A stretch of 63,915 nt of DNA, the filler included, from Dehalococcoidia bacterium (GTDB lineage Bacteria > Chloroflexota > Dehalococcoidia > DSTF01 > JACRBR01): the NCBI GenBank assembly GCA_041494685.1. It is 7 parts of 7 records of this genome, joined end to end, with 100 filler letters (N's around TTAATTAATTAA, not from the genome) between each part and the next. Parts side by side here need not be neighbours in the genome. Positions count along the whole stretch, not along the records: positions 32,484 to 42,514 come from JBGQBE010000069.1; 6 more parts are not named here. One strand, written 5' to 3'. This document shows, piece by piece, positions 1 through 54,287 of the stretch; position 1 is the stretch's first letter, and each line of letters opens with the position of its first letter. The notes beneath the pieces are model-generated. The model had not been told where the DNA came from, made no database searches, and saw only the letters and a list, made by a program, of their open reading frames with translations. The translations under genes and the position numbers were made by a program.

Positions 1-290
1 AGCTCCTCGTCGTCCAGCCCCCCATCGACGAACGCCTGCCGCACGATCTCGCGGAACGCGCCGTCCAGGTCCATGCGTCCTGAGTATGCCCGCGCCGGGT
101 CCGACCAGAACCACGTCCTGCGCGCGCGGATCAGCTCGTGCATGGGCCCCGGTGCGAACGACCCGTCGCAGTGCGCCTCGCACGCGGCCGCCCACGACTC
201 CTCCATCCCCGTCTGCCAGTCGAGGAGCGTGCCGTCCATGTCGAAGAAGATGGCGGCTGGCGCGGGCTGCGCGGCGTCGAGCAGGCTCAT
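1..290 (-). CDS. HAD-superfamily hydrolase (3' end outside window)
   Basis: Manual translation [25 protein letters not shown] carries HAD motif I (DxDGTL); ATG overlaps the upstream TGA (ATGA). Not in the ORF track. Confidence 0.85.
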   Translation of the reverse strand, partial: MSLLDAAQPAPAAIFFDMDGTLLDWQTGMEESWAAACEAHCDGSFAPGPMHELIRARRTWFWSDPARAYSGRMDLDGAFREIVRQAFVDGGLDDEE

Positions 291-750
291 GCGCGGCTCG
301 ACGCCAGCCAGCGCGCGATCTGGTCGATGTGCTCGCGGTAGTGGTCGTCGCTGTTCGCGCTCACCAGCTGCCACGTCGGCCAGCCGAAGCGCTTGTCGTC
401 CGCCAGCTCGGCCTCCGAGAGCGCCGACGCCGCATCCAGCATCGCCTGGTGCGAGTGACGGGACTCGCCGAGCACGTCCGGAAGCGGCCGCCCCTTCGCG
501 GCCTGGTAGTTGCGGGCGTTCGTACCGTCCACGTCCTGCACCTCGGGGCGCGCCGGCGTCTCGCCGCGCGCGGCCGCGGCCAGCCATTCGCAGCAGATGC
601 GCTCCCACATGCTGATGTGCGCCAGCGCGTCCTTCACCGACCAGCCGGCGTCCAGCGCGGGCTCGGTCAGGCGCGCCTCGTCGAGCGGGGCGATGAGCGC
701 CTCGAGGCGGGCGCGGTCGCCGCGGATGCTGGCGAGCAGTTCGTCCTTCG

Positions 751-754
<4 letters not shown>
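287..754 (-). CDS. DinB/ClbS-DfsB superfamily four-helix-bundle protein
   Basis: [10 protein letters not shown]...[14 protein letters not shown]...HYREH; start overlaps the uvrA stop; corresponds to the C-terminal part of ORF 287..2056. Confidence 0.8.
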
Positions 755-3852
<3,098 letters not shown>

Positions 3853-3928
3853 CGGGTCGGGCTCCTTGATGTCGGCAGTCAGAGGTTGCGGGTGGGGAGG
3901 CGCATGGCACCCGTGCGCTCCGCCACCC

Positions 3929-3947
3929 ATCATAGCACGGGTGTTCG
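3929..3947 (-). promoter_or_regulatory. Putative LexA (SOS) box abutting the -10 element of uvrA
   Basis: Minus strand reads cGAACacccGTGC-TATGAT, one mismatch to GAAC-N4-GTTC, directly upstream of uvrA. Confidence 0.65.
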
Positions 3948-4022
3948 CTCCCGCGATCGCGGATCGCAACGATGCTGACGCGGGGTGTCAGGAGGGATGT
4001 GAAACACTGTCACGGAGATCGT

Positions 4023-4049
4023 GTGAGGCTCCCTGCGTGGGAGCCTCAC
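4023..4049. terminator. GC-rich hairpin downstream of the secreted-protein gene (possible terminator)
   Basis: gtgaggctccc-tgcgt-gggagcctcac, perfect 11-bp stem; no clear U-tract. Confidence 0.45.
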
Positions 4050-4083
4050 TGAAATTTGCGCGCCTACTTGGCTGTGCGGGATC

Positions 4084-4776
4084 TCAACCGTCGCAGAGAG
4101 CAAGTCCCTCTGCATAGTCGATCTCGTGGAGGTAACGGTCGACGTCCCAAACGTTATAGATCGTCGTTCCCGACATCGACGAGTTCACGACCATGCAATC
4201 GACCAGCGTTCCTTGATGGACGTGGTAACCCACCCATGAGCAGCCGCCGTCGTTGTCGACCGTGGTGAAGCCTATGGTCGTCGTCGACTGGTAGCCGGGG
4301 TAGGGACCTGCGTACACGTTCGCCGCAACGCCGTCGCCTAGCGATCTGCCGGTGTGCAGCCACTGCAATTGACCGTGAAGGCCGTTCGCCACATCAATCA
4401 TGCCGATGTTCACAATGTCGCATCCCATCGAGGACACGCCCCCAGACGCATACGCTCTCAAGGTGAGGTGGTTACTCGTCCCGCCGAAACCCCAAGTGCG
4501 AAGTCGAGATTGAGAGGAGATGTCGCCCATGCACGGGGTCACCGTGCTATCTCCGAAAACGTCAATTGAACGGTTCGGCGGATGCACGGGCGGATTGTAT
4601 AACCCGGTGCACCACTGAAGAGGGCTGCCTTCACTTTGCGAAGCCATTGTGTATATGACGATGTGAGGTCCTGCGGCTTCCGTATCGCCCGGCGAGCGGC
4701 CGATCGCGGTGGTCGTAAGCACGAGCACGGCAGCGGAGAGCGCCAGTAAGGTTCGGAGAGAAAAGAGCTTGTTCAC
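4084..4776 (-). CDS. Secreted hypothetical protein, possible divergent M23-like metallopeptidase
   Basis: Signal peptide; H...D (HPPNRSID), WLH and IG...GYHVH occur in M23-like order. GTG start overlaps the upstream TGA. Confidence 0.6.
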
Positions 4777-5420
4777 GGCATGATCTCCTCGGCGTGCTTG
4801 ATGGCCGCTTCAGCGGAGGGGGCCATTTCGACGAAGACGGCAATGCCGGGTTTGTCGCCGTCGGGATACCGCTCGATCACGACGAGGTTCGCTTCCCCGT
4901 ACGGATATTCTGGAATAGGACGTTCGAGCAGCCCTGGGTGCCCCTCTACGGTCACGAGTTCCAGGCGATCGCGCGGCGCACTGCGCGCCACTGGCACAGG
5001 CACTGATTGGATGTAGCCACGCCCCAATGCAGAACCGTCGCTCCCCGACGGCGGTGCACCATCGGCCTCATTGTTGACGAGCACGACGCCCCGCCCGGAA
5101 CACGCCCATCCGATCCCGCCCTGCCCGAACGCGTCTGACCAGAGTTCTTCCGCCGAGAGTGCCTCGCTCGCTGCCACTGGCGTGCTCGCGCAGCGGAAGA
5201 TCTTAGCGTCGTCGGCGAGCGCGCCGGTACCGGAGACGACCACGAAGTCGCCGAGCCTGCCCGTGAACCGCGGCTTGGATGCCTCCTCATCCATCGCCCT
5301 TTGGATCTTCTCCGCGAGCGGTTCGCTGCCCTCCGACAACCTCTGCGCGACCAACCACCCAGACGCGGACAGCGCCGCAGCCGATATTACGACCAGCATC
5401 CATTTCCATCTTGCGCGCAT
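4773..5420 (-). CDS. Hypothetical protein with N-terminal signal/membrane anchor
   Basis: AAGGGAGGGG RBS before MRARWKWMLVVISAAAL; coupled to the downstream gene. Confidence 0.7.
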   Translation of the reverse strand: MRARWKWMLVVISAAALSASGWLVAQRLSEGSEPLAEKIQRAMDEEASKPRFTGRLGDFVVVSGTGALADDAKIFRCASTPVAASEALSAEELWSDAFGQGGIGWACSGRGVVLVNNEADGAPPSGSDGSALGRGYIQSVPVPVARSAPRDRLELVTVEGHPGLLERPIPEYPYGEANLVVIERYPDGDKPGIAVFVEMAPSAEAAIKHAEEIMP

Positions 5421-5507
5421 AACGCTCGCCCCTCCCTTGTCTATCGCTAGTTGCGGATCGTACGCCGGGGACGTTGCCACCTGAAGATGAGAATTGCCCG
5501 GGCATTT

Positions 5508-5756
5508 CTACTCGGGCGGTTCTTCCCTCGTGACGGGCGTTAGTCCTGCCGCGACAGCTTTCATCGCAGCCTCAGTCCGGTTCGCCGCATCGAGCTTCGT
5601 GAGAATGGTGGCGACGCAGTTGCTGACCGTGCTGGTCGCAAGCCCGAGTATCCGTGCGATCTCCTTGTCGGAGTGGCCCTTTCCGACCAGGGCAAGGACA
5701 CTGCGTTCACGAGGCGTAAGCGAGTGGCGATAGGAATGCATCGGGAACCTCAGCAT
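5508..5756 (-). CDS. Stand-alone LuxR/NarL-type helix-turn-helix regulator
   Basis: LTPRERSVLALVGKGHSDKEIARILGLATSTV...KLDAANRTEA; alternative start at 5741. Confidence 0.9.
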   Translation of the reverse strand: MLRFPMHSYRHSLTPRERSVLALVGKGHSDKEIARILGLATSTVSNCVATILTKLDAANRTEAAMKAVAAGLTPVTREEPPE

Positions 5757-5839
5757 GCATAGAGGATCCTCATACTATCCAGTATCATTGGAAGTCTCAA
5801 CGTGACCGCTCAGGTTCAGCCAGGCCCCACGCCACGGTG

Positions 5840-6508
5840 TCAAACCCCTTGGGAGACCGTGCGTGCGATGCCCTCGATCAGCACCGACCGCGGCGGCGCC
5901 CGGTGCGACAGCTTCTTCGCCCACGTCGTCTCGATCGCCGCGACCTCCTCCGGCTCCAGCGCGCGTGCCTCGGTGATCGTGATGCCGTGGCGCGCGAAGG
6001 CGGGCGCCAGCGTCTCGCGGACGTAGTCCGGCGTCACGTCGGGCAGGTCGCGCACCTCGATCGGGACGGGGTCGTCGAAGATGCGCAGGTTCAGCACGAT
6101 GCGCAGCGTCGCGCCGGGGCGGGCGAGCGAGGCGATGCCGCGCAGCACCGTCTCGTCGCCCAGCACGATGCCACGCATCAGGCTGCCCCACGGCAGCGTG
6201 ACGATGATCTCCGCCGCGACGTCGCGCAGCTCCTCCGGCGGATGTTCGATGCTGGCGACGACGTAGAGGGCGTTGGGCGCACCGCCGCGGTCGGGCTTGC
6301 GCGCGGCCTTCGCCGACAGCTCGCGCAGCGTCTCGCGCACCGGGTCGATGGCGACGACAAGGCGCTCCGGGTGCGCGAGGGCGTAGCGGTAGGCGAAGCG
6401 GCCGTCGCCCGCGCCCAGGTCGATCGTGACGGCGTCGTAGCGCGCGGCGAGCGCGGCGAACGCTGGTGCGTCGAGGGTGTCAGTCTGCTTGCCGCGCACG
6501 GTGATCAT
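5840..6508 (-). CDS. 16S rRNA (adenine(1408)-N1)-methyltransferase, KamB/NpmA family
   Basis: Family motifs IDLGAGDG, SAKAARKPDRGGAPNALY, LPWGSL and TTWAKKL, including the two conserved Trp residues; 222 aa. Confidence 0.88.
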   Translation of the reverse strand: MITVRGKQTDTLDAPAFAALAARYDAVTIDLGAGDGRFAYRYALAHPERLVVAIDPVRETLRELSAKAARKPDRGGAPNALYVVASIEHPPEELRDVAAEIIVTLPWGSLMRGIVLGDETVLRGIASLARPGATLRIVLNLRIFDDPVPIEVRDLPDVTPDYVRETLAPAFARHGITITEARALEPEEVAAIETTWAKKLSHRAPPRSVLIEGIARTVSQGV

Positions 6509-6540
6509 CGGCGCATTGTCGCAGGCGCGGCGCGTTATCC

Positions 6541-6700
6541 ACAGATGAGACGACGGTGGATCCGCAGATGACGCAGATGCTGGTGACGACGGGGGTTCGC
6601 AGATGGCACAGATGGGTACCGATGTTGGGTGGTGGAGACACCAAGAGAGGGGGCTCATGCCCCCTCTTCTTCATCCGTGTCCATCTGTGTCATCTGCGGA
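6541..6700. repeat. GCAGATG-based inverted-repeat element (MITE/REPIN-like), copy 1
   Basis: tccgcagatgacgcagatg (6561-6579) pairs with catctgtgtcatctgcgga (6682-6700); further units at 6596-6624; internal hairpin about 6645-6667. Confidence 0.75.
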
Positions 6701-6727
6701 CGAAATCGTCCGTGGACGGAACGCCCC

Positions 6728-7084
6728 TTACGCGGTGGCGGCGATGGCCTTCTGCGCGATCGTCGCGAAGGCGGCGGGCTGGAAGACGGCCAGGTCGGCG
6801 AGCATCTTGCGGTCGATGGCGATGCCGGCGCGGGCGAGGCCGTTGATCAGCCGGCTGTACGTGGTGCCGTTGATCCGGGCCGCAGCGTTGATGCGGGCGA
6901 TCCACAGCTTGCGGAAGTCGCCCTTCCGCTCGCGGCGGTGCTCGAAGGCGTACTGCAGCGAGTGCAGCACGGACTCGTTCGCGCGCCGGAAGACGCGGTG
7001 ACGCTGACCCTTATGCCCCTTGGCAAGGTCGATGATCTTCTTGTGTCGCGCCCGGGCGGTAACGCCCCGCTTCATCCTCGGCAT
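6728..7084 (-). CDS. rplT: 50S ribosomal protein bL20
   Basis: [16 protein letters not shown]...[14 protein letters not shown]...[10 protein letters not shown]. Confidence 0.98.
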
Positions 7085-7103
7085 GAGGTCCTCCGAAATG
7101 GAG

Positions 7104-7172
7104 AGAACCTAGAACTTAGAACCTGGAACCATCGCGCTCGGACAGGTTCTGGGTTCTGGGTTCCTGGTTCTC
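7104..7172. repeat. Inverted arrays of heptamer repeats (AGAACCT)n/(GGTTCTG)n
   Basis: agaacct agaactt agaacct ggaacca ... aggttct gggttct gggttcc tggttct, between rpmI and rplT. Confidence 0.8.
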
Positions 7173-7176
7173 GGAC

Positions 7177-7380
7177 TTACCGCTTCGCGTACGGCATCAG
7201 CTTGCGCAGGACCCGCTGGGCGGGCTTGCTGACGACGAACATCTCGTCGCCGGCGTGGTTGGCCGCGCTGGACTTCCGCGTCTTGCGGTGGCTGATGCTG
7301 CCCTTGCGGCGCGTGAACTTGCCCGTGCCGGTCACTTTGAACCGGCGGGCCGCGCCGCGGTGCGTCTTCATCTTTGGCAT
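7177..7380 (-). CDS. rpmI: 50S ribosomal protein bL35
   Basis: [21 protein letters not shown]. Confidence 0.97.
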
Positions 7381-7386
7381 GTCGTG

Positions 7387-8037
7387 CTACCCCTGCGCCT
7401 CGGCGGGCGCTGTCTCGACGCCGGCCTCCAGGAGGGCGGCTGCCATGGCGGATTCGTCCGGTTCGCCCGAGCCGCCTACGAATGCCGGCTTCGGCACGCG
7501 CGGCGTCCTGGGCTTCGGCGCCTGCTTTTGCGGCGCCGGGGACAGGTACATGTTCATGAAGCGGCCCTCCATCGAGGGCTGGCGCTCCACGACCGCTGCG
7601 CCTTCCAGGTTGCCGGCGATCCGCAGCAACAGCTCGCGGCCGATCTCCGGGTGGGTGATTTCCCGCCCGCGGAACATTACCGAAACCTTGACCTTGTCGC
7701 CACCTTCGAGCAGCTTCTTGACGACGCGCGTCTTGAAGTCGACGTCGTGGGTGCCGATCTTGGGCTTGAAGCGCACTTCGCGAAGCTGCACCTGCTTCTG
7801 GTTCTTGTGCGCCTCCCGCTCCTTCTTGGCCTGTTCGTACTTGAACTTGCCATAGTCCAGGACGCGGCAGACAGGTGGCGAAGCGTTCGGGGCGACCTCG
7901 ACCAGGTCGAGCCCGCGCTCTCGCGCCATCGCCAGTGCCTCATGGATAGGTGTGACGCCCAGCTTGTGGCCCTCATCGTCGATGATGAGCACTTCCCGGA
8001 CGCGAATCCGTTCGTTGATGCGGAGATCTCTGGCTAT
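7387..8037 (-). CDS. infC: Translation initiation factor IF-3 (non-canonical ATA start)
   Basis: The in-frame extension ATA-ARDLRINERIRVREV follows an AAGGGG RBS; LDLVEVAPNASPPVCRVLDYGKFKYE and FRGRE motifs. Confidence 0.95.
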   Translation of the reverse strand: MARDLRINERIRVREVLIIDDEGHKLGVTPIHEALAMARERGLDLVEVAPNASPPVCRVLDYGKFKYEQAKKEREAHKNQKQVQLREVRFKPKIGTHDVDFKTRVVKKLLEGGDKVKVSVMFRGREITHPEIGRELLLRIAGNLEGAAVVERQPSMEGRFMNMYLSPAPQKQAPKPRTPRVPKPAFVGGSGEPDESAMAAALLEAGVETAPAEAQG

Positions 8038-8113
8038 GCCGGGCCCCTTTTGCTGGGCTGAATGAGCCTGTTTGACGCGTTATCGTTCGCGCCTCAACCT
8101 GGATTGGAGCCTC

Positions 8114-8143
8114 ACTATACGGGAAAGCTCAAAGCCGCTGCAA
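8114..8143 (-). promoter_or_regulatory. Sigma70-type promoter of infC-rpmI-rplT
   Basis: TTGCAG-N18-TATAGT on the minus strand. Confidence 0.6.
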
Positions 8144-8158
8144 TGCTGCCGCCGGGAC

Positions 8159-8674
8159 TTACAGGAGTACCAGTAGGGGGGTCCCCTGGTCCACCCGCTG
8201 GCCGACGCTCACGTAGACGGCCTTCACGGTGCCGGCCCGGCGGGCGTGCAGCTCGTTCTGCATCTTCATCGCCTCGACGACGATGAGCACCTGGCCCTCC
8301 GTGACCTCATCATCGGCCGAGACGGCGATCTCCCGCACCACGCCGGCCATGGGCGACTTGAGCACCCATTCGCCGCCCGCGTCGACGTCCAGCGACTCGC
8401 CGCCCGCGCCGCTGCCGCGGCGGCCGGTCTGCGTGCCGACGGCGATGGTGCGGCCGCCCACGATGACGTGGTAGCCGGTCGGGCCCTCCTCGGCGAAGAC
8501 GTCGTATGTCTTGCCGTCGACGATCAGCGAGTAGCGGGCGGAGTCGTTGATGCGCTCGAGGCTCACGGTAGAGGTGCGCTCGTCGAGCGTCACGTGGAAG
8601 CCGCCGGCGTGGTCCGGCTCGACTTCAACCTCGTGGGTCTCCTTGCCCAGCTTCAGCCGGTACTTTGGCGCCAT
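8159..8674 (-). CDS. Biotin carboxyl carrier protein of an acyl-CoA carboxylase
   Basis: SPMAGVV...EAMKMQNEL biotinylation motif; start MAPKYRLKLG. Confidence 0.92.
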   Translation of the reverse strand: MAPKYRLKLGKETHEVEVEPDHAGGFHVTLDERTSTVSLERINDSARYSLIVDGKTYDVFAEEGPTGYHVIVGGRTIAVGTQTGRRGSGAGGESLDVDAGGEWVLKSPMAGVVREIAVSADDEVTEGQVLIVVEAMKMQNELHARRAGTVKAVYVSVGQRVDQGTPLLVLL

Positions 8675-10203
8675 CGGGCCCCCTGTTGCGACGCGCGCGC
8701 GCGCGCGGCCAGCTGCCGGTCCCGGCCGTTGTCGCGCCAGCCCGTCGCCGGCGTCGTGATGACGGCCGGCTGCGCGCCGTTGCGCGCGCGCCGGTGGTGC
8801 GACATCACCGCCGCGACCAGCAGCGCGACTCGCTCGTCGTCGACGTGCCCGTCGGCCTCGACCATCTTGAAGTCGTTGTCCACGAAGCCCGTGTGCACCT
8901 CGCCCGCGACGAAGCGCGGGTCGTCGAGCAGTTGCAGGTGGAACGGGATGTTCGTCTTGACGCCGACGACCACGTACTCGCGCAGCGCGCGCTTCATGCG
9001 CTTGATCGCCTGCGTGCGGTCGATGCCCCAGCAGATCAGCTTGGCGAGCATCGGGTCGTAGAAATACGGGATCTCGATGCCGCTGAAGATGGAGCTGTCG
9101 ACGCGGACGCCGGGGCCGCTCGGCTCGTTCACAAAGTCGATGCGGCCGAGCGACGGCAGGTAGTTGTTGAACGGATCCTCGGCGGCGATGCGGCACTCGA
9201 TCGCGGCGCCCCGCAGCTTCACGTCGTCCTGCGTGAAGCCCAGCGGCTCGCCCGCGGCGATACGGATCTGATCGCGGACGAGGTCGCGGCCGCAGAGCCA
9301 CTCGGTGACGGGGTGCTCGACCTGGAGGCGCGTGTTGACCTCGAGGAAGTAGAACTCGCGCGTGGCCGGGTCAAACAGGAACTCGACGGTGCCGGCGTTG
9401 TAGTAGCCGGAGGCCTTCGCCGCCGCCACGCCCGCCGCCATCATCTTCTCGCGCGTCGCCTGGTCCAGGACCGGCGACGGTGACTCTTCGAGCAGCTTCT
9501 GGTGGCGGCGCTGGACGGAGCACTCGCGCTCGCCCAGCGCGACGGCGTTGCCGTGCTTGTCGGCCAGCACCTGGATCTCGATGTGGCGCACCGGCGAGAG
9601 ATAGCGCTCCAGGAACACGCCGCCGTCGCCGAACGCCGACTGCGCCTCGCTCGACGCGACGCGCACGGCGCCTTCGACCTCTTCCTGCGACTTGACGAGC
9701 CGGATGCCCTTGCCGCCACCGCCCGCGGACGCCTTGATCAGCAGCGGGAAGCCGATGCCCGGCGCGGCCTTCAGCGCCTCGTCGGGCTCGACGCGGCCCT
9801 CAGTGCCCGGTACCACGGGTACGCCGGCGGCGATCATCGTGCGGCGGGCGTTCACCTTGTCGCCCAGCAGCTTGACGGAGTCGGTGCTGGGGCCGATGAA
9901 GGTGATGCCGGCGTCGGCGCACGCTTCGGCGAACTCCGTCCGCTCGCTCAGGAAACCGTAGCCGGGGTGTATGGCGTCGACGCCGGCCGCCTTCGCTACC
10001 TCAACGATCTTCGGATAGTTGAGGTAGCTCTCCAGCGGCGGTCCCTCGCCGATGTGGTACGCCTCGTCCGCGTACCGGACGTGGAGCATCGCCCGGTCGA
10101 CCGTCGAGTAGACGGCAACGGTGGCGATGCCCATCTCCCGGCACGTCCGCATGACGCGAAGGGCGATCTCGCCCCGGTTGGCGACCAGGATCTTCTTGAA
10201 CAA
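8653..10203 (-). CDS. accC: Biotin carboxylase subunit (acetyl/propionyl-CoA carboxylase)
   Basis: ILVANRGEIA, HPGYGFLSE, GGGGKG, RECSVQRRHQK, EVNTRLQVEHPVTE; TTG start. Confidence 0.93.
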   Translation of the reverse strand: MFKKILVANRGEIALRVMRTCREMGIATVAVYSTVDRAMLHVRYADEAYHIGEGPPLESYLNYPKIVEVAKAAGVDAIHPGYGFLSERTEFAEACADAGITFIGPSTDSVKLLGDKVNARRTMIAAGVPVVPGTEGRVEPDEALKAAPGIGFPLLIKASAGGGGKGIRLVKSQEEVEGAVRVASSEAQSAFGDGGVFLERYLSPVRHIEIQVLADKHGNAVALGERECSVQRRHQKLLEESPSPVLDQATREKMMAAGVAAAKASGYYNAGTVEFLFDPATREFYFLEVNTRLQVEHPVTEWLCGRDLVRDQIRIAAGEPLGFTQDDVKLRGAAIECRIAAEDPFNNYLPSLGRIDFVNEPSGPGVRVDSSIFSGIEIPYFYDPMLAKLICWGIDRTQAIKRMKRALREYVVVGVKTNIPFHLQLLDDPRFVAGEVHTGFVDNDFKMVEADGHVDDERVALLVAAVMSHHRRARNGAQPAVITTPATGWRDNGRDRQLAARARASQQGARWRQSTG

Positions 10204-10295
10204 TCAAAGCTCCCGCTGAAGTACGGGTGTTTCTATCACAGATGGCCGGTTCGGGGTAGGTTCCGGAGGCTGGAGGTAGGCTCCGGGGCCTAGCG

Positions 10296-10586
10296 CTACG
10301 TGGGGCGCGGGGTCGGCTGGACGGCGGCCTCCTGCGGCACGACTTCGAGCGCGTTGACGACCCGCTCGACGCGGTCGTGCCAGCGCACCAGGTCCTCGAC
10401 CGCGGTGGACTGGGCGGAGCTGGAGACGTGGCCGGTGAGCTGCGCGACGCCCGCGACGTAGGCGACCGTGACACTGCCGGATGACGGACGCAGCGAGCGG
10501 CCGACGTAGTCGTTCAGCGCGCGCTCGACATCCGTGTCAGGGACGCCCGCCAGCGCTGAGAGATCGGATTCGCGGCTAGACGGCAT
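10296..10586 (-). CDS. BON-domain protein
   Basis: VTVAYVAGVAQLTGHVSS...VERVVNALEV pattern. Confidence 0.7.
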   Translation of the reverse strand: MPSSRESDLSALAGVPDTDVERALNDYVGRSLRPSSGSVTVAYVAGVAQLTGHVSSSAQSTAVEDLVRWHDRVERVVNALEVVPQEAAVQPTPRPT

Positions 10587-10832
10587 GCATGTCTCCGGTG
10601 CTGCGGCGGACGCGTCCGCGCGAGGGCTTCGCTACGGTGCTCCACGATGGTTTCGAGAAAGGTGCTCGGCGGTAGCGAAACGCTCCGTACTGTTCATACC
10701 ACCCCGCGCGCCGCGATTCAACGCACGAAACGCGCCGGCCGGCCCGCCGCGAAGCTGGCACTGGACATCATCTGTGATTTCGTGGGGCTGAGGTTTGGTA
10801 GAGCCGCAGCCGATGGCGGCTACACTGGCGGC

Positions 10833-10961
10833 ATGGAGGCGTTCGTACACGACGCGGTGCTCGACATGCAGCACGCCCGCAACGACCTGCTGGCGGCGCT
10901 GGCCGAGGTCGGCGACGGCGACTGGGGCCGCTACGTGCCGTACGGCGAACGCACCCTCCAC
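10833..10961 (+). CDS. DinB-like protein, N-terminal fragment (contig end)
   Basis: MEAFVHDAVLDMQHARNDLLAALAEVGDGDWGRYVPYGERTLH; TACACT lies 6 nt before the ATG. Confidence 0.6.
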
Positions 10962-39689: not shown

Positions 39690-40967
39690 CTACGCCGCCA
39701 GCGGCAGTCCACCCGCGGGGTGTCCGTCCTCGTCGTGGCCCTGACCCCGCATCGCGTCGTCCAGGTCGCGCAGAAGGTTTGTGTCGTACAGGTGCACGAA
39801 CGCCTCGACGATGGCCGGATCCAGATGGCTGCCGCTCATCCGTTTGATCTCGGCGATCGCCTCGTGCGCCGGCCATGCCGCCTTGTACGGCCGCTCGCTG
39901 ATCAGCGCGTCGTAGACGTCGGCCACCGCGACGATGCGCGCCGCCAGGGGAATCTCCTCGCCGGCGAGGCGGTCGGGGTAGCCCGTCCCGTCCCACTTCT
40001 CGTGGTGCGATCGCGCCACTTCGCGCGCCGCGCGGAACTCGTCGCTCTCGGAGAGCAGGTCGTCCCCCCACAACGTATGCTTCTGGATCTCGCGCCGCTC
40101 CGGCTGCGTCAGCGCGCCCGGCTTCTTCAGGATCGCGTCCGGCACCTGGGCCTTGCCCACGTCGTGGATCATCGCAGCGTACGCGACCTCGCGCGCTTCC
40201 TGCTCGCCCATGCCCAACCGCAGCGCCAGCGCGAGCGAGTAGTACTGGATGTGCCGCAGGTGCATACCGGCGTCGGTATCGCGCGCCTCGACGATCGTCG
40301 CCAGCATCGTCAGCGTCTGCCGCGTCTTCTGCTCCAGCCCCTCGCGACGCCGCCGCAGCTCCGTGGAGAGCGAGACCGCGACGAAGCTCGTCAGCACGAA
40401 GAACACCAGCCGCACCGGCAGTTCGCGTCTGAAGTACGTATCAGTGTCGAAGAAGCCCAGCGACACGCCGACGAACAGCCCCGTCCACAGCGCCGCCCAG
40501 AACAGCGAGCCCACCGGCCCGTACACCAGGCTGTTGGACACGATCAGCGTGATGTAGATCAGCCAGATGTCCGACTCGTACCCGGCCTGCCCCATCTTCA
40601 TGAACACGTACAGCGACGCGCCGATGATGATCGCGTTGTCCAGCACGATCGACACCACGCGCTGGAGGCGCTTGCGCCCCTGGAAGATCAGCGCGGCCAT
40701 GCCGAAGTTCGCGACGATCGCGCTGCCGCACGCCGCCAGCACGCCCTCGCGCCCCGGCAGCGCCGTGCCCTGCAGCAGCACCGCGAGCGCCACGAGCAGC
40801 GCGATCGCCGGCCGCACGATCAGGAACATCCGCTCAAGCTCCATATTCCCGCTGCCCAGGAACGAGTCGACCGGGTGCCAGAGGCGCGAACGCAGCGTCC
40901 GCTCAGGCCCAAGCCGCCTGGCGGTACGCAACGGGATATCGAACGATATGGGAGCCCGCACGTCCAT
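39690..40967 (-). CDS. Membrane-bound HD-GYP cyclic-dinucleotide phosphodiesterase
   Basis: About 6 TM segments, then EARD, HDVGK, HHEKWDGTGYP; start uncertain. Confidence 0.9.
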   Translation of the reverse strand: MDVRAPISFDIPLRTARRLGPERTLRSRLWHPVDSFLGSGNMELERMFLIVRPAIALLVALAVLLQGTALPGREGVLAACGSAIVANFGMAALIFQGRKRLQRVVSIVLDNAIIIGASLYVFMKMGQAGYESDIWLIYITLIVSNSLVYGPVGSLFWAALWTGLFVGVSLGFFDTDTYFRRELPVRLVFFVLTSFVAVSLSTELRRRREGLEQKTRQTLTMLATIVEARDTDAGMHLRHIQYYSLALALRLGMGEQEAREVAYAAMIHDVGKAQVPDAILKKPGALTQPERREIQKHTLWGDDLLSESDEFRAAREVARSHHEKWDGTGYPDRLAGEEIPLAARIVAVADVYDALISERPYKAAWPAHEAIAEIKRMSGSHLDPAIVEAFVHLYDTNLLRDLDDAMRGQGHDEDGHPAGGLPLAA

Positions 40968-41125
40968 ACTGCTTAATCGTCGGTTCATTCGATACCGAGT
41001 TGATCGCTGCCCCGGCCCAATTCGCGGCCAGGTTCCGGATCCGCGGACATGGCGCGGCGCTTGCCTCGCCTGAGAGGGGGCCGCTAGCATGCACCGCCGC
41101 CCGCACGGGCCGGCTCCCGCATCGC

Positions 41126-41202
41126 GGGCGATTAGCTCAGTTGGTTAGAGCGTCTCGCTTACACCGAGAAGGTCGCAGGTTCGAGCCCTGCATCGCCCAC
41201 CA
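41126..41202 (+). tRNA. tRNA-Val(TAC)
   Basis: Full cloverleaf gggcgat/atcgccc, anticodon arm tctcg-cttacac-cgaga, GTTCGAG, encoded CCA. Confidence 0.97.
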
Positions 41203-41243
41203 CCCTACCCACACAGCCCCGATCCTCAACTTGTTAAAAATCG

Positions 41244-41593
41244 GCCAAGAATCATGGGGAAAACCCCTACGGGCTTCCCTAGGAATGCCGAACCTCTAGG
41301 TGACAGCGACGGAACGGGGCAACGAGCCACCTCCTAATCGCTGGCGTCCGTCTCGAGGGCCGGGCGCCGCCTCCGCAGGGTGATGCGGGGGAAGTCACCG
41401 CAAGCCAGACCCCGGTGGCCCTCGGCCGGGGAGCCGTAGTCATTCACCACAAGGGGGAATAGGTATGATCAAGAATCTGGCTCTGCGTGTGCTCGTGGCC
41501 CTCCAGGGACTCGAGTCGAAGGTTCAGGATGAGGAAGGCCAGACGCTGGCCGAGTACGGCCTGATCATGGCCGTCATCGCCGTCGCGGTCATC
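41244..41593 (+). repeat. About 350-bp duplicated unit (promoter + leader + pilin 5' end), copy 1
   Basis: Near-identical to 42161-42514. Confidence 0.92.
41299..41446 (+). ncRNA. Candidate structured leader RNA upstream of Flp pilin, copy 1
   Basis: Multiple helices shared with copy 2; I could not match it to a riboswitch family. Confidence 0.5.
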
Positions 41594-41674
41594 GCGACCG
41601 CCGTCATCGTCTTCCGTGGCGCGATTATCAGCGCGTTCAGCGGCGCCACGAAGTGCCTCAGCGGCTCCTGCTAA
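41465..41674 (+). CDS. flp: Flp family type IVb pilin
   Basis: EEG|QTLAEYGLI prepilin motif + hydrophobic helix; AAGGGGG RBS. Confidence 0.93.
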   Translation: MIKNLALRVLVALQGLESKVQDEEGQTLAEYGLIMAVIAVAVIATAVIVFRGAIISAFSGATKCLSGSC

Positions 41675-41787
41675 GGGGCGTCGAGGTCGATCGGTCTACG
41701 TAGTGGGGAGGGGCGTCCCGGCGGTCGCCGGCGCGCCCCTCTCTCACTCTCATCCGCAGCCACGACGTATCGACAGGGGGGTACACA

Positions 41788-41997
41788 ATGCTCACAGGTG
41801 TGGCCCTGCGGCTGTTTCTCGCCATCCAGTGCATTGGGGTCAGGGCCGACGATGAATCCGGCCAGACGCTCGCCGAATACGGCCTGATCATCAGTATCAT
41901 GGTCGTGGCGATCCTCGTGATCGCGGTGACCGTCTTCAGAGACGTGCTCCCGGCGGCCTTCAACAGTGCGCTGCCGTGCCTCACGGGTTCCTGCTGA
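41788..41997 (+). CDS. flp: Flp family type IVb pilin (divergent paralogue)
   Basis: ESG|QTLAEYGLI; C-terminal CLTGSC. Confidence 0.9.
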   Translation: MLTGVALRLFLAIQCIGVRADDESGQTLAEYGLIISIMVVAILVIAVTVFRDVLPAAFNSALPCLTGSC

Positions 41998-42026
41998 GGC
42001 AAGCGCCGGGCATCTGCATCGAAGCG

Positions 42027-42058
42027 AAAGGGCACAGCCGCTGGCTGTGCCCTTTCTC
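42027..42058 (+). terminator. Intrinsic terminator after the second pilin
   Basis: aaagggcacagcc-gct-ggctgtgcccttt followed by tct. Confidence 0.8.
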
Positions 42059-42216
42059 ATACCGCCGCCGCAACCAGCGACGGGGCGCCGCCGGCCAGGC
42101 AGGCGACGCATGGTCATCCGCGCTGCGTCGCCTGCCTGGCTGCCCCGCTCTCACAAGTCCGCCAGGAATCATAGGGACAACCCCTACAGACTCCCCCTAG
42201 GAATACCGAAGCTCTA

Positions 42217-42365
42217 AGTGACGGCGACGGAGCGGGGCAACGAGCCACCTCCTAACCGCTGGCGTCCGTCTCGAGGGCCGGGCACCGCCTCCGCAGGGTG
42301 ATGCGGAGGAGATCACCGCAAGCCAGACCCCGGGGGCCCTCGGCCGGGGAGCAGCCGTAGTCATT
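42217..42365 (+). ncRNA. Candidate structured leader RNA upstream of Flp pilin, copy 2
   Basis: Helices gacgga/tccgtc, agcgg/ccgct, cgagggcc/ggccctcg, ctccgca/tgcggag, acggc/gccgt. Confidence 0.5.
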
Positions 42366-42385
42366 CGCTACAAGGGGGAACAGGT

Positions 42386-42514
42386 ATGATCAAGAATCTG
42401 GCTCTGCGTGTGCTCGTGGCCTTCCAGGGACTCGAGTCGAAGGTTCAGGATGAGGAAGGCCAGACGCTGGCCGAGTACGGCCTGATCATGGCCGTCATCG
42501 CCGTCGCGGTCATC
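42386..42514 (+). CDS. flp: Flp pilin, third copy (truncated by contig end)
   Basis: MIKNLALRVLVAFQGLESKVQDEEGQTLAEYGLIMAVIAVAVI. Confidence 0.9.
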
Positions 42515-42614
42515 NNNNNNNNNNNNNNNNNNNNNNNNNNNNNNNNNNNNNNNNNNNNTTAATTAATTAANNNNNNNNNNNNNNNNNNNNNNNNNNNNNN
42601 NNNNNNNNNNNNNN
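42515..42614. other. Artificial contig linker
   Basis: N-run + TTAATTAATTAA + N-run. Confidence 0.99.
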
Positions 42615-42784
42615 GACGCACCTGCCCCGTATCTCCGCCATATCTCCGTCTTCTCCTGCACCGTCAACGCTGATCGGACCATCATTACCACCCCATCCTT
42701 CACGAGCAGTCTTAGCCCGTTCGACGGGGTGGTGCGATCACCGCTTGAGACCGCCCCTCATGGTGCGCGATCAGCTTCTCGGTG

Positions 42785-52196: not shown

Positions 52197-54287
52197 ATGG
52201 CTGATGACGCACCGCAGCATCCCGAAGGGCCGCGCACGTTCGCTACGGCGCTGCGCGACGCTTCGCCGCTGGCGCCGGAGCTGCTCGAGCGGATGCTCGC
52301 ACTGGAATCCGGCCGCCACCCGGAGCTCTCGGCGCTCCGCGTGGCGCTCGGGCTCGACCTGGACCTGCGCGGCGCCACGGCGGCGGCGGATGAGGCGCGG
52401 TCGCTGCTTGACGCGACCTCGACCGACGCGGAGGTCGCGCGCGTCATCGACGCCATGCACGCCGCCGTTCGGTCCAGCCGGCTGGTCCGCGTCGCCGTCA
52501 GCGACGCCGGCGTCGCACCCTCGCGCGACGCCGGCCCGATCGTGCTGCGCGACGGCGAACCCCTCGCGCTCTACATCCTGGCGGAGAACAGCACCGCCGA
52601 CGGCCTGCCCTTCTCGTGCGAGGCGCACGGCGAGGGCATCGGCGGCTTCGTCGAGCCACAGCGCGCCGGTTCGTCGATCTTCAGGCTCGACGCGATCCAC
52701 ACCGGCTCGTACCTGCTGCCGCTGCTCGTCACCGCCGGCGGCCGCCCCGCGCACATCGACCTGCCGATCGAATGCCGTGCCGCCGGCACGCTCGCCGTCC
52801 GTATCGTCGACGACGAGACGGGCGAGCCGGTGGCGGCGCGCGTCTACCTCGCCGACGACGCGGGGCCGACGTGGCCCGGCGGCGCGCCGATCCGCCGCGA
52901 CGGGCGCGGCGACGCCTGGTTCCACGCGGACGGCGCCTTCGAGGCGATCGTCTCCGGCACGGCGCACCTGCGCGTCGCGCGCGGCATCGAGTACGAGCCG
53001 GCGACGGCGACCGCGGCGGTGCGCCCGGACGGCCGCGCCGAGGTCACCGTGCGGCTGCGCCGCTGGTCGCACATGGCGGCCGACGGCTGGCACAGCGGCG
53101 ACGTACACGTGCACCTGCACTACGGCGGCGAGTATGAACTGTCGCCCGAGGACGCGTCGCTGGCGCAGCGCGCCGAGGACGCCCGTTTCCTGAACATGAT
53201 GGTGGCGAACCAGGGCAGCGGCTGGGTGCACGACGCCACGCTCTTCTCCGGCGCTCAGCACCCGCTCAGCACCGCCGGCCACGTCCTGCAGTGGGGCGAG
53301 GAGTACCGCAACGACTTCTACGGCCACCTCTGCATGTACGGGCTGCGCGAACTGGTGCCGCCCGTGTACAGCGGCTTCGCCCGCACCGACCACCCCCACG
53401 ACGTGCCGGCGAACGCCGTCGCCGCGCGCCACTGCCACAGTGTCGGCGGCACGCTCAGCTACGCGCACCCGCTGTTCGATTCCGGCGACCTCGACCGCGT
53501 CTTCAGCGAGAAGATTGCCTACGAGGCGAAGGAATTGCCGGTCGACGCGGCGCTCGGCCTGGTCGATGCGATCGACATCATGTCGTACCCGGCGGACAGC
53601 GTGGAGACGGCGCGGCTCTGGTACCGGCTGCTGAACTGCGGATTGCGCCTGGCGGCCACCGCCGGCAGCGACACCTTCATGAACACCTGCGACTGGGGCA
53701 AGTTCAGCAACCCGCCGGCCGGCGTGCGCGCCTTCGTGCGCGTCGATGGCGCGCTGAGCACGGAGGCGTGGTGCGCGGGCGTCCGCGCCGGGCGCAGCTT
53801 CGTCACCAACGCGCCGATGCTCCGGCTCGAGATCGGCGAGCACGGCATCGGCGACGAGATCGCGGCCGCACCGGGCGACGTGCTGCGCGTCGAAGCGGAG
53901 GCCGGATCGTACGCGCCGATGGACCGCATCGAGCTGATCGTCGATGGCGAGGTCGTCGTCTCGGCCGCGGCGGACGAGGGCGGCCGCCATGCGATGCTCA
54001 GCCACGATCTGCGCGTCGAACGCGGCTGCTGGATCGCGCTGCGCGCGACCGGTCCCGAGCACGAGTACGTGCTGGGCGGCGCGCTCTTCGCGCACACCAG
54101 CCCGATCTACGTCAGCGTGCCGGGCGCGCCCATTGTGTCGGCCGCCGACGCCGCGTACTTCGTCGCGTGGATCGATCGCCTCGTCGCGATGTGCGAGCGC
54201 GAGGGCAGCTACGCCTCCGCCGCCGACCGCGGCGCCGTGGTGGCCGTCTTCCGGCAGGCGCAGCGGTACTACGTCACGAGGGCGTAG
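52197..54287 (+). CDS. CehA/McbA-like PHP-fold metallohydrolase
   Basis: RGIEY, GWHSGDVHVH, GEEYR...GHL, YAHP, WYRLLNCG, AGSD, GRSFVTNAP, FAHTSPIYV. Confidence 0.85.
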   Translation: MADDAPQHPEGPRTFATALRDASPLAPELLERMLALESGRHPELSALRVALGLDLDLRGATAAADEARSLLDATSTDAEVARVIDAMHAAVRSSRLVRVAVSDAGVAPSRDAGPIVLRDGEPLALYILAENSTADGLPFSCEAHGEGIGGFVEPQRAGSSIFRLDAIHTGSYLLPLLVTAGGRPAHIDLPIECRAAGTLAVRIVDDETGEPVAARVYLADDAGPTWPGGAPIRRDGRGDAWFHADGAFEAIVSGTAHLRVARGIEYEPATATAAVRPDGRAEVTVRLRRWSHMAADGWHSGDVHVHLHYGGEYELSPEDASLAQRAEDARFLNMMVANQGSGWVHDATLFSGAQHPLSTAGHVLQWGEEYRNDFYGHLCMYGLRELVPPVYSGFARTDHPHDVPANAVAARHCHSVGGTLSYAHPLFDSGDLDRVFSEKIAYEAKELPVDAALGLVDAIDIMSYPADSVETARLWYRLLNCGLRLAATAGSDTFMNTCDWGKFSNPPAGVRAFVRVDGALSTEAWCAGVRAGRSFVTNAPMLRLEIGEHGIGDEIAAAPGDVLRVEAEAGSYAPMDRIELIVDGEVVVSAAADEGGRHAMLSHDLRVERGCWIALRATGPEHEYVLGGALFAHTSPIYVSVPGAPIVSAADAAYFVAWIDRLVAMCEREGSYASAADRGAVVAVFRQAQRYYVTRA

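Follow-up and report, generated by a model that had tools for sequence, protein, structure and literature searches.

A putative cis-acting leader RNA with complementary hairpin loops, behind sigma-28-type promoter boxes, in front of Flp pilin genes of one Chloroflexota family

The hag leader of Bacillus subtilis is an example of an elaborate leader in front of a gene for a major filament subunit. It combines a sigma-D promoter, a 5' stem-loop, CsrA sites and a strong Shine-Dalgarno (SD) sequence, and CsrA controls flagellin translation through a site in the 5' hairpin and a site at the SD. Kissing loops, in which two hairpin loops of one leader pair with each other, are likewise known, as in the cobalamin riboswitches (L5-L13) and the purine riboswitches (L2-L3). 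Here we describe a leader that occurs twice in front of genes for Flp-type prepilins in a Dehalococcoidia bacterium (Chloroflexota, assembly GCA_041494685.1), within a stretch of 63,915 nucleotides that we call the window. An initial annotation of this DNA had proposed a riboswitch-like candidate and had pointed to pilin genes controlled by cyclic-dinucleotide riboswitches. That precedent is sound: according to the accessible text of the report (PMC6366702), Cdi-2-4, a class II riboswitch for cyclic diguanosine monophosphate (c-di-GMP), precedes pilA1 of C. difficile. As far as that text goes (PMC6366702), the flp leader resembles Cdi-2-4 in being a structured 5' leader directly before a major pilin gene and in having a pseudoknot-type pairing.

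The window is a concatenation of contigs, and the leader lies on contig C69 (JBGQBE010000069.1, 32,484-42,514; positions 1-10961 belong to C66). The annotation had it repeated before pilin copies 1 and 3, and so it is: positions 41240-41464 and 42162-42385 form a repeat of ~220 nt with 89% identity before flp1 and flp3, and the flp coding sequence after both copies is near-identical up to the contig end at 42514. These are the only two copies that covariance model R1 (see below) finds in the whole genome. The annotation had taken the entire leader for RNA. In our reading, the first ~60 nt of the repeat (41244-41300) are most likely promoter DNA and the 3' ~165 nt are the folded part. We assign a probability of roughly 0.6 to the explanation in which each module consists of a sigma-28-type promoter and a kissing-loop 5' untranslated region (5'UTR), an uncatalogued RNA that would act in cis on flp mRNA. 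We found no paper on this leader in the literature on Flp pilin and tad leaders, on pilin kissing-loop leaders and on structured RNAs of Chloroflexi. The predicted 5'UTR, ~165 nt after the promoter, is composed of the following parts.

41302-41344, + strand: 5'-terminal stem P0, GACAGCGA (41302-41309) with TCGCTGG (41338-41344), enclosing a variable insert; the exact register is uncertain.
41343-41368, + strand: hairpin C, GGCGUCCG (41343-50) with CGGGCGCC (41361-68); its loop segment A is UCGAGGGC (41353-60).
41370-41391, + strand: hairpin H2, CCUCCGCA with UGCGGGGG; variable.
41410-41431, + strand: hairpin B, CCCCGG (41410-15) with CCGGGG (41426-31); its loop segment A' is GCCCUCGG (41418-25), complementary to A.
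41451-41467, + strand: strong SD AAGGGGGAA (41451-59) and flp1 start codon (41465); the G-run and the ATG are invariant in the alignment.
42220-42388, + strand: 5'UTR of copy 2, an R1 match of 75.8 bits, with P0 at 42220-27/42256-62, C at 42261-68/42279-86, A at 42271-78, H2 at 42288-95/42302-09, B at 42328-33/42344-49, A' at 42336-43, SD at 42372-80 and ATG at 42386.

A BLAST-type DNA search in relatives returned weak partial matches only. In its place, we collected flp upstream regions and then used R1, a covariance model restricted to the nested helices (C, H2 and B), with A/A' left out. By nhmmer, 22/57 flp upstream regions, from 30 family loci, resemble the leader, and their alignment has three zones: strongly conserved boxes at the 5' side, a middle that varies, and a 3' part, conserved again, with AAGGGGGAA-N5-6-ATG at its end. 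R1 has matches in 27/35 other genomes of the GTDB family (26/34 without genome G021), one or two per genome and each ending at the ATG of flp, while relatives of flp1 are present in 34/36 genomes of the family. Within the order, 28/93 genomes carry the element, all of them in this one family; in the samples searched, R1 matched 0/57 genomes of the order's four sister families and 0/146 genomes from 62 other families of the class. In our opinion the comparison establishes, on the level of predicted pairing, a conserved fold, its placement between promoter boxes and SD, and its restriction to flp genes.

RNAalifold calls two hairpins on the plain MAFFT alignment. In the unfitted MAFFT alignment of 21 sequences 84.0% of the cells are paired versus 76.3% after shuffling, and 16/29 pairs are compensatory. 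The R1 alignment had 31 rows of family loci and then 50 rows (46 distinct sequences), when locus L066 and 17 of 18 metagenome loci were added; L276, which is cut at its 3' end, was omitted. These 18 are the R1 matches among 58 metagenome loci that had been found by the promoter pattern, the RNA not being consulted, and the other 40 gave no R1 match at E<=0.001. Over the 46 sequences 88.4% of the cells are paired versus 76.5% in shuffled alignments (0/500 reach the real value), and sliding the partners by 1-3 columns leaves 36-52%. Changes on both sides occur in 25/30 pairs, compared with a shuffled mean of 15.9 (again 0/500). Helix by helix, compensatory pairs number 7/8 in C (89.4% paired), 8/8 in H2 (83%) and 5/6 in B. 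For A/A' they number 5/8, with 95.9% of the cells paired, and since these pairs were outside the R1 model, their support is not an artefact of the alignment. The variants of A and A' stay complementary, as in CGGGGGC/GCCCCCG, CGAGAGC/GCUCUCG and CGAAGGC/GCCUUCG; L066 has the loop pair CGGGAGC/CUUCCG, and L240 has a matched insertion, CGGAGGGC/GCCCUCCG. Cells with G-U (81) exceed those with A-C (41), which favours an RNA of the + (sense) strand.

It is instructive to compare this outcome with the helices listed in the initial annotation. Its cgagggcc/ggccctcg is our A/A' and its ctccgca/tgcggag is our H2; both are kept in the 46 homologues with compensatory changes, and the difference between the copies that preserves pairing through G-U (tgcggag/tgcgggg) was described correctly. 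The pair ccccgg/ccgggg, which had been offered as a competing alternative, is indeed conserved as a pairing, and because it is kept with compensatory changes in the same homologues it is a real hairpin, B/B', and more than an alternative. The list overlooked hairpin C and P0. Its acggc/gccgt, ggtgat/atcacc and ctggc/gccag do not persist across the family alignments, and gacgga/tccgtc and agcgg/ccgct, which lie in the lineage-specific region of P0 and its insert, are not conserved either.

The aligned homologues thus support, as a predicted structure, a 5'UTR that folds into P0, C, a dispensable H2 and B, and in which the C and B loops pair through their 3' parts. The 8-nt loop segments of the two hairpins are mutually complementary (CGAGGGC/GCCCUCG), and in both hairpins the pairing segment occupies the 3' side of its loop. 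Ahead of it is a 5' linker, of 2-6 nt in C and of 1-4 nt in B; behind it, the linker in B is 0 nt in 45/46 sequences, and A abuts C' by construction. In pseudoknots such an arrangement lets the helix between the loops stack on the stems while its deep groove is spanned by short 5' linkers, so that the linker geometry is compatible with a stacked loop-loop helix. The arms of A/A' are 57-58 nt apart in the genome of this bacterium, and the spacing from C to B varies by 30 nt across the family. The 3' strand of hairpin C has the family form CGGGCRCC and the C loop shows CGAGGGC. L188 and L275 have no H2, and L178:1015 keeps only a vestige of it. The linker from B' to the SD varies in sequence and length, as do the junctions. 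As for P0, 28 nt that start 6 nt past the -10 box pair with the 24 nt immediately before hairpin C. This was tested on 42/46 sequences, four having been dropped as their boxes were not found by the promoter regular expression: cognate segments have a mean of -22.1 kcal/mol versus -15.5 for non-cognate ones, and the cognate partner is in the top 3 in 21/42. The beginning of P0 thus comes close to the predicted +1, in keeping with the promoter interpretation, for which the relevant features are as follows.

41231-41252, + strand: upstream boxes TTGTTAAAAA ... CCAAGAAT of copy 1, conserved in the MAFFT alignment of the 22 flp upstream regions.
41264-41272, + strand: -35-like box CCCCTACGG of copy 1; the family consensus is AAACCCCTA[C/A]AG.
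41287-41292, + strand: -10-like box GCCGAA of copy 1, of the sigma-28/WhiG type GCCGA with the central CGA.
Copy 2, + strand: upstream box CCAGGAAT (42162-69), -35 box CCCCTACAG (42181-89) and -10 box ACCGAA (42205-10), at a spacing of 15.

The boxes AAACCCCTA(C/A)AG-N14/15-GCCGA look like a promoter of the sigma-28/FliA/WhiG type. Among the 22 leaders, the -35 variants are CTACAG (13), CTACGG (5) and CTAAAG (4), so that 22/22 fit AAACCCCTA(C/A)(A/G)G; the -10 box has GCCGA in 18/22 and CGA in 22/22, and the two boxes are 14 nt apart in 18 leaders and 15 nt apart in the other 4. The -10 box of copy 1 stands 173 nt before the ATG. No sigma-70-type promoter was found in 41100-42514. The transcript would most likely start at ~41300 in copy 1, downstream of GCCGAACC, and at ~42218 in copy 2. 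An ECF-type (extracytoplasmic function) reading of the promoter, with AAC as the -35 and CGA as the -10, was rejected, the spacing of ~24 nt being too long for the ECF consensus. In the published account of WhiG promoters, as far as it is accessible (PMC12871210), the consensus is given as T(A/C)AA-N16-GCCGATAA and CTCA-N16-17-GCCGAACT with stress on an invariant CGA, and predicted WhiG sites are reported in type IV pilus clusters of Actinomycetota. The flp boxes comply with the sigma-28/FliA/WhiG-type definition in that text, including a position within 200 bp of the start codon, save for one -35 base in 18/22 leaders (PMC12871210). By the same text, the likeness to WhiG/FliA promoters consists in the GCCGA with invariant CGA, a -35 resembling T(A/C)AA or CTCA at N15-17, and a site less than 200 bp from the start codon and ahead of pilus genes; the differences are the host, here Chloroflexota, the -35 TACA, and the presence of the boxes also before archaellin and ECF sigma genes (PMC12871210).

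The upstream boxes at 41231-41252 are probably DNA-level sites, perhaps for an activator or of UP-like character. Their family consensus is TTGTAAAA-N~8-CTAAGAAT. We observed that TTGTAAAA and CTAAGAAT are direct-repeat-like, ~10 bp apart, upstream of the flp -35, and that (T)CCCCTA is repeated within the promoter spacer (41273-41286 in copy 1) in about half of the flp promoters. There is also a GTAAGA(A/G) box upstream of the sigma-gene promoter described below, and TGTCAAAC upstream of several archaellin promoters. The boxes upstream of the flp, sigma-gene and archaellin promoters and the repeat in the flp spacer may be sites of a shared DNA-binding regulator.

A matrix of the flp sites exceeds 14 bits in only five places of the 3.29-Mb genome, namely in the two leaders, before a gene for an ECF-type sigma factor, after a gene for a FlaI/T2SSE-type ATPase and in one other place. 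The ECF-type sigma gene (regions r2 and r4; G000:C9:21844-23601, locus L161/L193) is followed directly by cpaB/rcpC. Among the NCBIfam models it fits the BldN family best, with a score below the cut-off, and its product is 82-92% identical across the GTDB family and 71-79% in genus g9. Upstream of it, (A)CCCCTCAAG-N15-GCCGAT stands at the aligned place in 29/29 family loci (the same site may be written ACCCCTCAAG-N15-GCCGAT), and with the flp matrix 16/29 of these upstream regions score above the maximum of 580 shuffles. The leader of this sigma gene has a conserved stretch of its own, TGGGA..TAAGGGA..CCCGTAAGGGA. In genus g9 (G008, G022, G042) the ECF sigma gene is directly upstream of flp, and therefore this sigma factor is tied to the pilin as well; the RNA element was not found there. 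Near the ATPase gene (G000:C19:37277-37715, L163) we note CCCTAAGG-N15-GCCGAT between that gene and an acidic open reading frame (ORF) of 114-132 amino acids, which has no Pfam family.

A looser scan led to an archaellin gene (PF01917, 86.9 bits; G000:C27:10408-11131, locus L294/L300), ~120 nt upstream of which there is a canonical sigma-28-type site, CCCTAAAG-N14-GCCGACAATC. The 15 closest orthologues in the family have the site in 15/15, with GCCGA in 15/15 and CTAAAG in 12/15. A strict regular expression, which required the C-run of the flp box, found sites before 5/46 archaellin genes; the family has up to 7 archaellin paralogues per genome. Archaella in Chloroflexota have been published, as the accessible part of that report describes (PMC12488501). 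The genome, 97.6% complete, gave no match for flagellin and encodes two sigma factors of the FliA/WhiG family, at C4:79162-79839 and C52:10552-11223 (TIGR02479, 190.7 bits with a cut-off of 189.6, and 181.5 bits). From the promoter sequences it seems that a promoter of the bacterial flagellar type drives a gene for an archaeal-type filament. Candidates for the sigma factor that would read the flp boxes are a FliA/WhiG-like sigma and the tad-linked ECF sigma. Two CsrA homologues (68.9 and 68.5 bits; G000:C4:75466-75615 and C28:2352-2507) are also encoded, one of them 3.5 kb from one of the FliA/WhiG-like sigma genes.

How might such a module work? Each copy would be a self-contained expression module for the major Flp pilin. 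The alternative-sigma promoter CTA[C/A]AG-N14/15-GCCGA would start the transcript, and the pilin would be part of a surface-filament regulon, as is suggested by the same promoter type before the archaellin and tad-linked ECF sigma genes. Selection acts on C/C', B/B' and A/A' alike, so the simplest model has them formed at the same time, and all the helices probably coexist as an intramolecular kissing-loop (double pseudoknot-like) fold ahead of an exposed strong SD. P0 and the compact fold could protect the 5' end from decay and set the context of the ribosome-binding site, with the result that a very abundant 69-amino-acid protein would be made at a set rate. Possibly, the fold would also serve as a docking site for a trans-acting regulator. 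With the hag leader the flp leader shares a major filament subunit, a sigma-28-type promoter, a 5'-terminal stem, a structured 5'UTR and a strong SD, and CsrA homologues are present in its genome; it differs in hairpin loops without a conserved GGA and in a loop-loop complementarity that hag lacks. Because of these loops, CsrA as the docking regulator remains speculation. The cobalamin and purine riboswitches are alike in that two loops of one leader pair and covariation keeps the pairing. The flp loop-loop helix, in contrast, is long (7-8 bp, G+C-rich), A/A' is the most conserved part of the RNA, and there is no ligand-binding core.

Several points weigh against this explanation. Single-sequence folds of the G+C-rich (68%) DNA have z = -1.6 and +0.38, no better than shuffles, so that the structural case rests on comparison. 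The compared sequences are kin, and cell counts therefore overstate the number of independent events. The nested helices, but not A/A', guided the fit of both the 31-row and the 46-sequence alignments. The predicted start and the boundary between promoter and RNA come from the DNA sequence, as public contigs from RNA runs cover only the tRNA and flp coding parts of relatives. The -35 is TACA or TACG in 18/22 leaders, one base off both published WhiG forms, with TAAA in 4, and the two copies of this bacterium deviate once each, by CTACGG in copy 1 and by ACCGA with a spacing of 15 in copy 2. That the leader probably acts on mRNA stability or translation is an argument from analogy only. Finally, nearest-neighbour energies do not favour the three-hairpin form: in 36/46 sequences it is less stable than a nested conformer with the long-range A:A' helix (median -6.1 kcal/mol, with no term for kissing), and a two-state switch therefore accounts for the data no less well than a static kissing fold.

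Such a switch would alternate between the three-hairpin form (C, H2, B) and the nested A/A' form and would be shifted by a trans factor (a protein such as a CsrA homologue, a small RNA, or temperature), altering flp translation or decay. Selection has kept both sets of helices, the conformers differ little in predicted energy, with the hairpin form ahead in 10/46, and the genome has two CsrA homologues, one of them close to a FliA/WhiG-like sigma gene. We nevertheless regard the switch as the less probable reading, though a serious rival, given that the loop sequences vary by compensation and no CsrA site is evident in loop C, that the linker between B' and the SD is so variable, and that the asymmetry of the loop linkers suits simultaneous stacking. 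In addition, A' as an anti-SD that is released by A is not consistently predicted: when A is blocked, pairing of A' with the SD has a median probability of 0.01 and exceeds 0.5 in only ~11/46 sequences. One may also ask whether the entire ~220-nt repeat is RNA after all, with a start near 41240 or read-through from the tRNA-Val gene, and with AAACCCCTACAG and GCCGA as RNA elements. The start site near 41300 is a prediction, the boxes are as conserved as the helices, and a tRNA gene lies directly upstream on the same strand in 11/27 loci. We find this very improbable, though, because the same boxes with the same spacing precede the ECF sigma (29/29) and archaellin (15/15) genes, where the downstream leaders are different, because they fit the published sigma-factor consensus in the accessible text (PMC12871210), because the covariation-supported structure starts only past them, at P0, and because 16/27 loci have no upstream tRNA. 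The opposite extreme, that there is no functional RNA and that we see chance pairing in DNA of high G+C content or a DNA-level inverted repeat (operator), deserves hardly any credence. High G+C content does yield many spurious helices, and the single-sequence scores are not significant; yet this leaves unexplained the excess of compensatory changes over all shuffles, the collapse of pairing in the slid controls and the 2 to 1 preference for G-U over A-C on the sense strand, while the distance between the arms of A/A' and the variable spacing between C and B are unlike an operator.

The riboswitch question needs separate treatment, as it was the initial suggestion. A small-molecule riboswitch would have to belong to a new class or be a very distant member of a cyclic-dinucleotide class, with flp translation gated by the metabolite or second messenger that it senses. 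The 5'UTR position, the several helices, the conserved tertiary-type pairing, the precedent before pilA1 and the HD-GYP gene as a divergent neighbour all speak for it. With Rfam 15, however, the window gave tRNAs only at the gathering score, nothing on the leader was found at E<=10 over 41000-42514, and 19 homologous loci from genomes and metagenomes gave only the upstream tRNAs at E<=1. In particular, at none of these three settings did the models of c-di-GMP-I (GEMM-I, RF01051) or c-di-GMP-II (RF01786) match, and neither c-di-AMP nor other riboswitch models scored at E<=10 over 41000-42514. The GGGCAA, GCAAGCC and CAGCCG that had been seen as faint echoes of c-di-GMP-I are not conserved in the family, GCAAGCC occurring in a subset only. 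Of the columns, 26 are conserved at >=90%, and the unpaired ones among them are the SD Gs and the ATG only; as every other such column is inside a helix, there are no pocket-like unpaired conserved nucleotides. H2 and all the junctions vary in both length and sequence, and H2 is dispensable. No terminator-like site was found in the leader, and an SD-sequestering helix is not consistently predicted. These are also the differences from Cdi-2-4, which, in the accessible text of its description (PMC6366702), acts by transcription termination: the flp leader matches neither RF01786 nor RF01051, has no unpaired pocket nucleotides and has no terminator. A range of one family would be unusual for a metabolite sensor, and the synteny with tRNA and HD-GYP genes is found in 11/27 loci only. 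Hence, the leader is not a c-di-GMP riboswitch, the proposed distant c-di-GMP-type variant finds no support, and a riboswitch of any class is decidedly unlikely. The absence of an Rfam match, of conserved unpaired nucleotides and of a terminator together point to a new cis-acting leader RNA, and this other half of the initial suggestion, a new cis-regulatory RNA, is borne out: the element is conserved before flp in one Chloroflexota family, shows covariation and has no match in Rfam 15. A c-di-GMP link, if there is any, could be at the level of the sigma factor, by analogy with the WhiG-type sigmas of Actinomycetota, which are c-di-GMP-controlled via RsiG according to the accessible text of that article (PMC12871210). 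A bolder reading, improbable in our estimate, casts the kissing-loop leader as a sensor domain within a new switch, either riboswitch-like or gated by a factor, that controls Tad pilin translation. If this were true, the pairing of the C and B loops would be formed or broken by a checkpoint protein of pilin assembly or by a second messenger, the divergent HD-GYP neighbour being a c-di-GMP phosphodiesterase gene, and there would be a second layer of control under a sigma-28-type promoter that is re-used for archaellin and pilin genes in a lineage with an archaellum and no flagellum.

For completeness, the genes around the two leaders and the linker at the contig join are the following.

39690-41090, - strand: HD-GYP gene, divergent neighbour, read from the sequence and the ORF list.
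41126-41202, + strand: tRNA-Val(tac), called by ARAGORN (Rfam tRNA 73.9 bits); context, outside the element.
41465-41674, + strand: flp1, an ORF for a 69-amino-acid Flp-type prepilin (Pfam Flp_Fap E=1.4e-6, 28.4 bits, below the cut-off of 32.2).
41788-41997, + strand: flp2, a diverged paralogue, 48% identical to flp1, with a short upstream region without the element.
42030-42059, + strand: terminator-like hairpin GGGCACAGC/GCUGUGCCC followed by UUUCU, 3' of flp2, by direct reading; a stricter T-run rule does not flag it.
42386-42514, + strand: flp3, first 43 codons, truncated at the end of C69.
42515-42635: linker, a run of N with ttaattaatta, which marks the contig join.
42785-44893: GGDEF/GAF/HD-GYP gene beyond the linker, on another contig and not a true neighbour of flp3.

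Between tRNA-Val and flp1 there is a non-coding stretch of 262 nt. flp3 stops at 42514 because the contig ends there, and gene neighbourhoods across linkers are not real because the window was joined from separate contigs. The HD-GYP gene across the tRNA-Val had been cited in favour of a cyclic-dinucleotide link, and this argument is weak: tRNA-Val is upstream of the leader in only 11/27 family loci, and thus this neighbourhood is not a constant companion of the element. Elsewhere in the window, at 52463-52558, ARAGORN reports a 96-nt tRNA-Asp(gtc) that has no Rfam tRNA match at the gathering score; this may be a miscall, or else an unusual tRNA with an intron or insert.

Public metagenomes add to the picture of the distribution. 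A scan of the collection with the promoter pattern returned at least 120 loci, mostly chance occurrences in unrelated phyla, and among the matches listed the RNA is found only in L041, L069, L104 and L066. A pattern specific for the RNA returned 13 loci, of which six labelled Dehalococcoidia are true and another six have no R1 match; L225 (Myxococcota, 24.4 bits), located within coding sequence, was dismissed as a chance match. The public contigs that bear the element come from metagenome-assembled genomes (MAGs) named 'Dehalococcoidia bacterium' or 'Chloroflexi bacterium'. L066 (DASSBZ010000024.1, 5.5 kb) is from a MAG labelled Gemmatimonadaceae and has the full module, with the boxes, the leader with changed complementary loops, and flp. 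Mis-binning of a Chloroflexota contig is the probable cause, and horizontal transfer is less likely.

What is described here is known in kind, as a structured 5'UTR motif, and new as a family that is absent from Rfam 15. Judged by comparative evidence, the leader is a real, conserved and uncatalogued RNA, predicted to act in cis, with a loop-loop architecture and behind what appears to be a sigma-28-type promoter. In our opinion it deserves attention as a candidate new RNA family with unusually clean comparative support, from an uncultured family of soil and sediment Chloroflexota, and its architecture is simple and testable: two hairpins with paired loops before the gene for the main subunit of the Tad pilus. 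Of no less interest is the sigma-28/WhiG-type promoter that pilin, archaellin and tad-linked ECF sigma genes appear to have in common in a bacterium that bears archaellum genes and lacks a flagellin match. It offers a hypothesis of how a horizontally acquired archaeal motility filament may have been wired into bacterial regulation.

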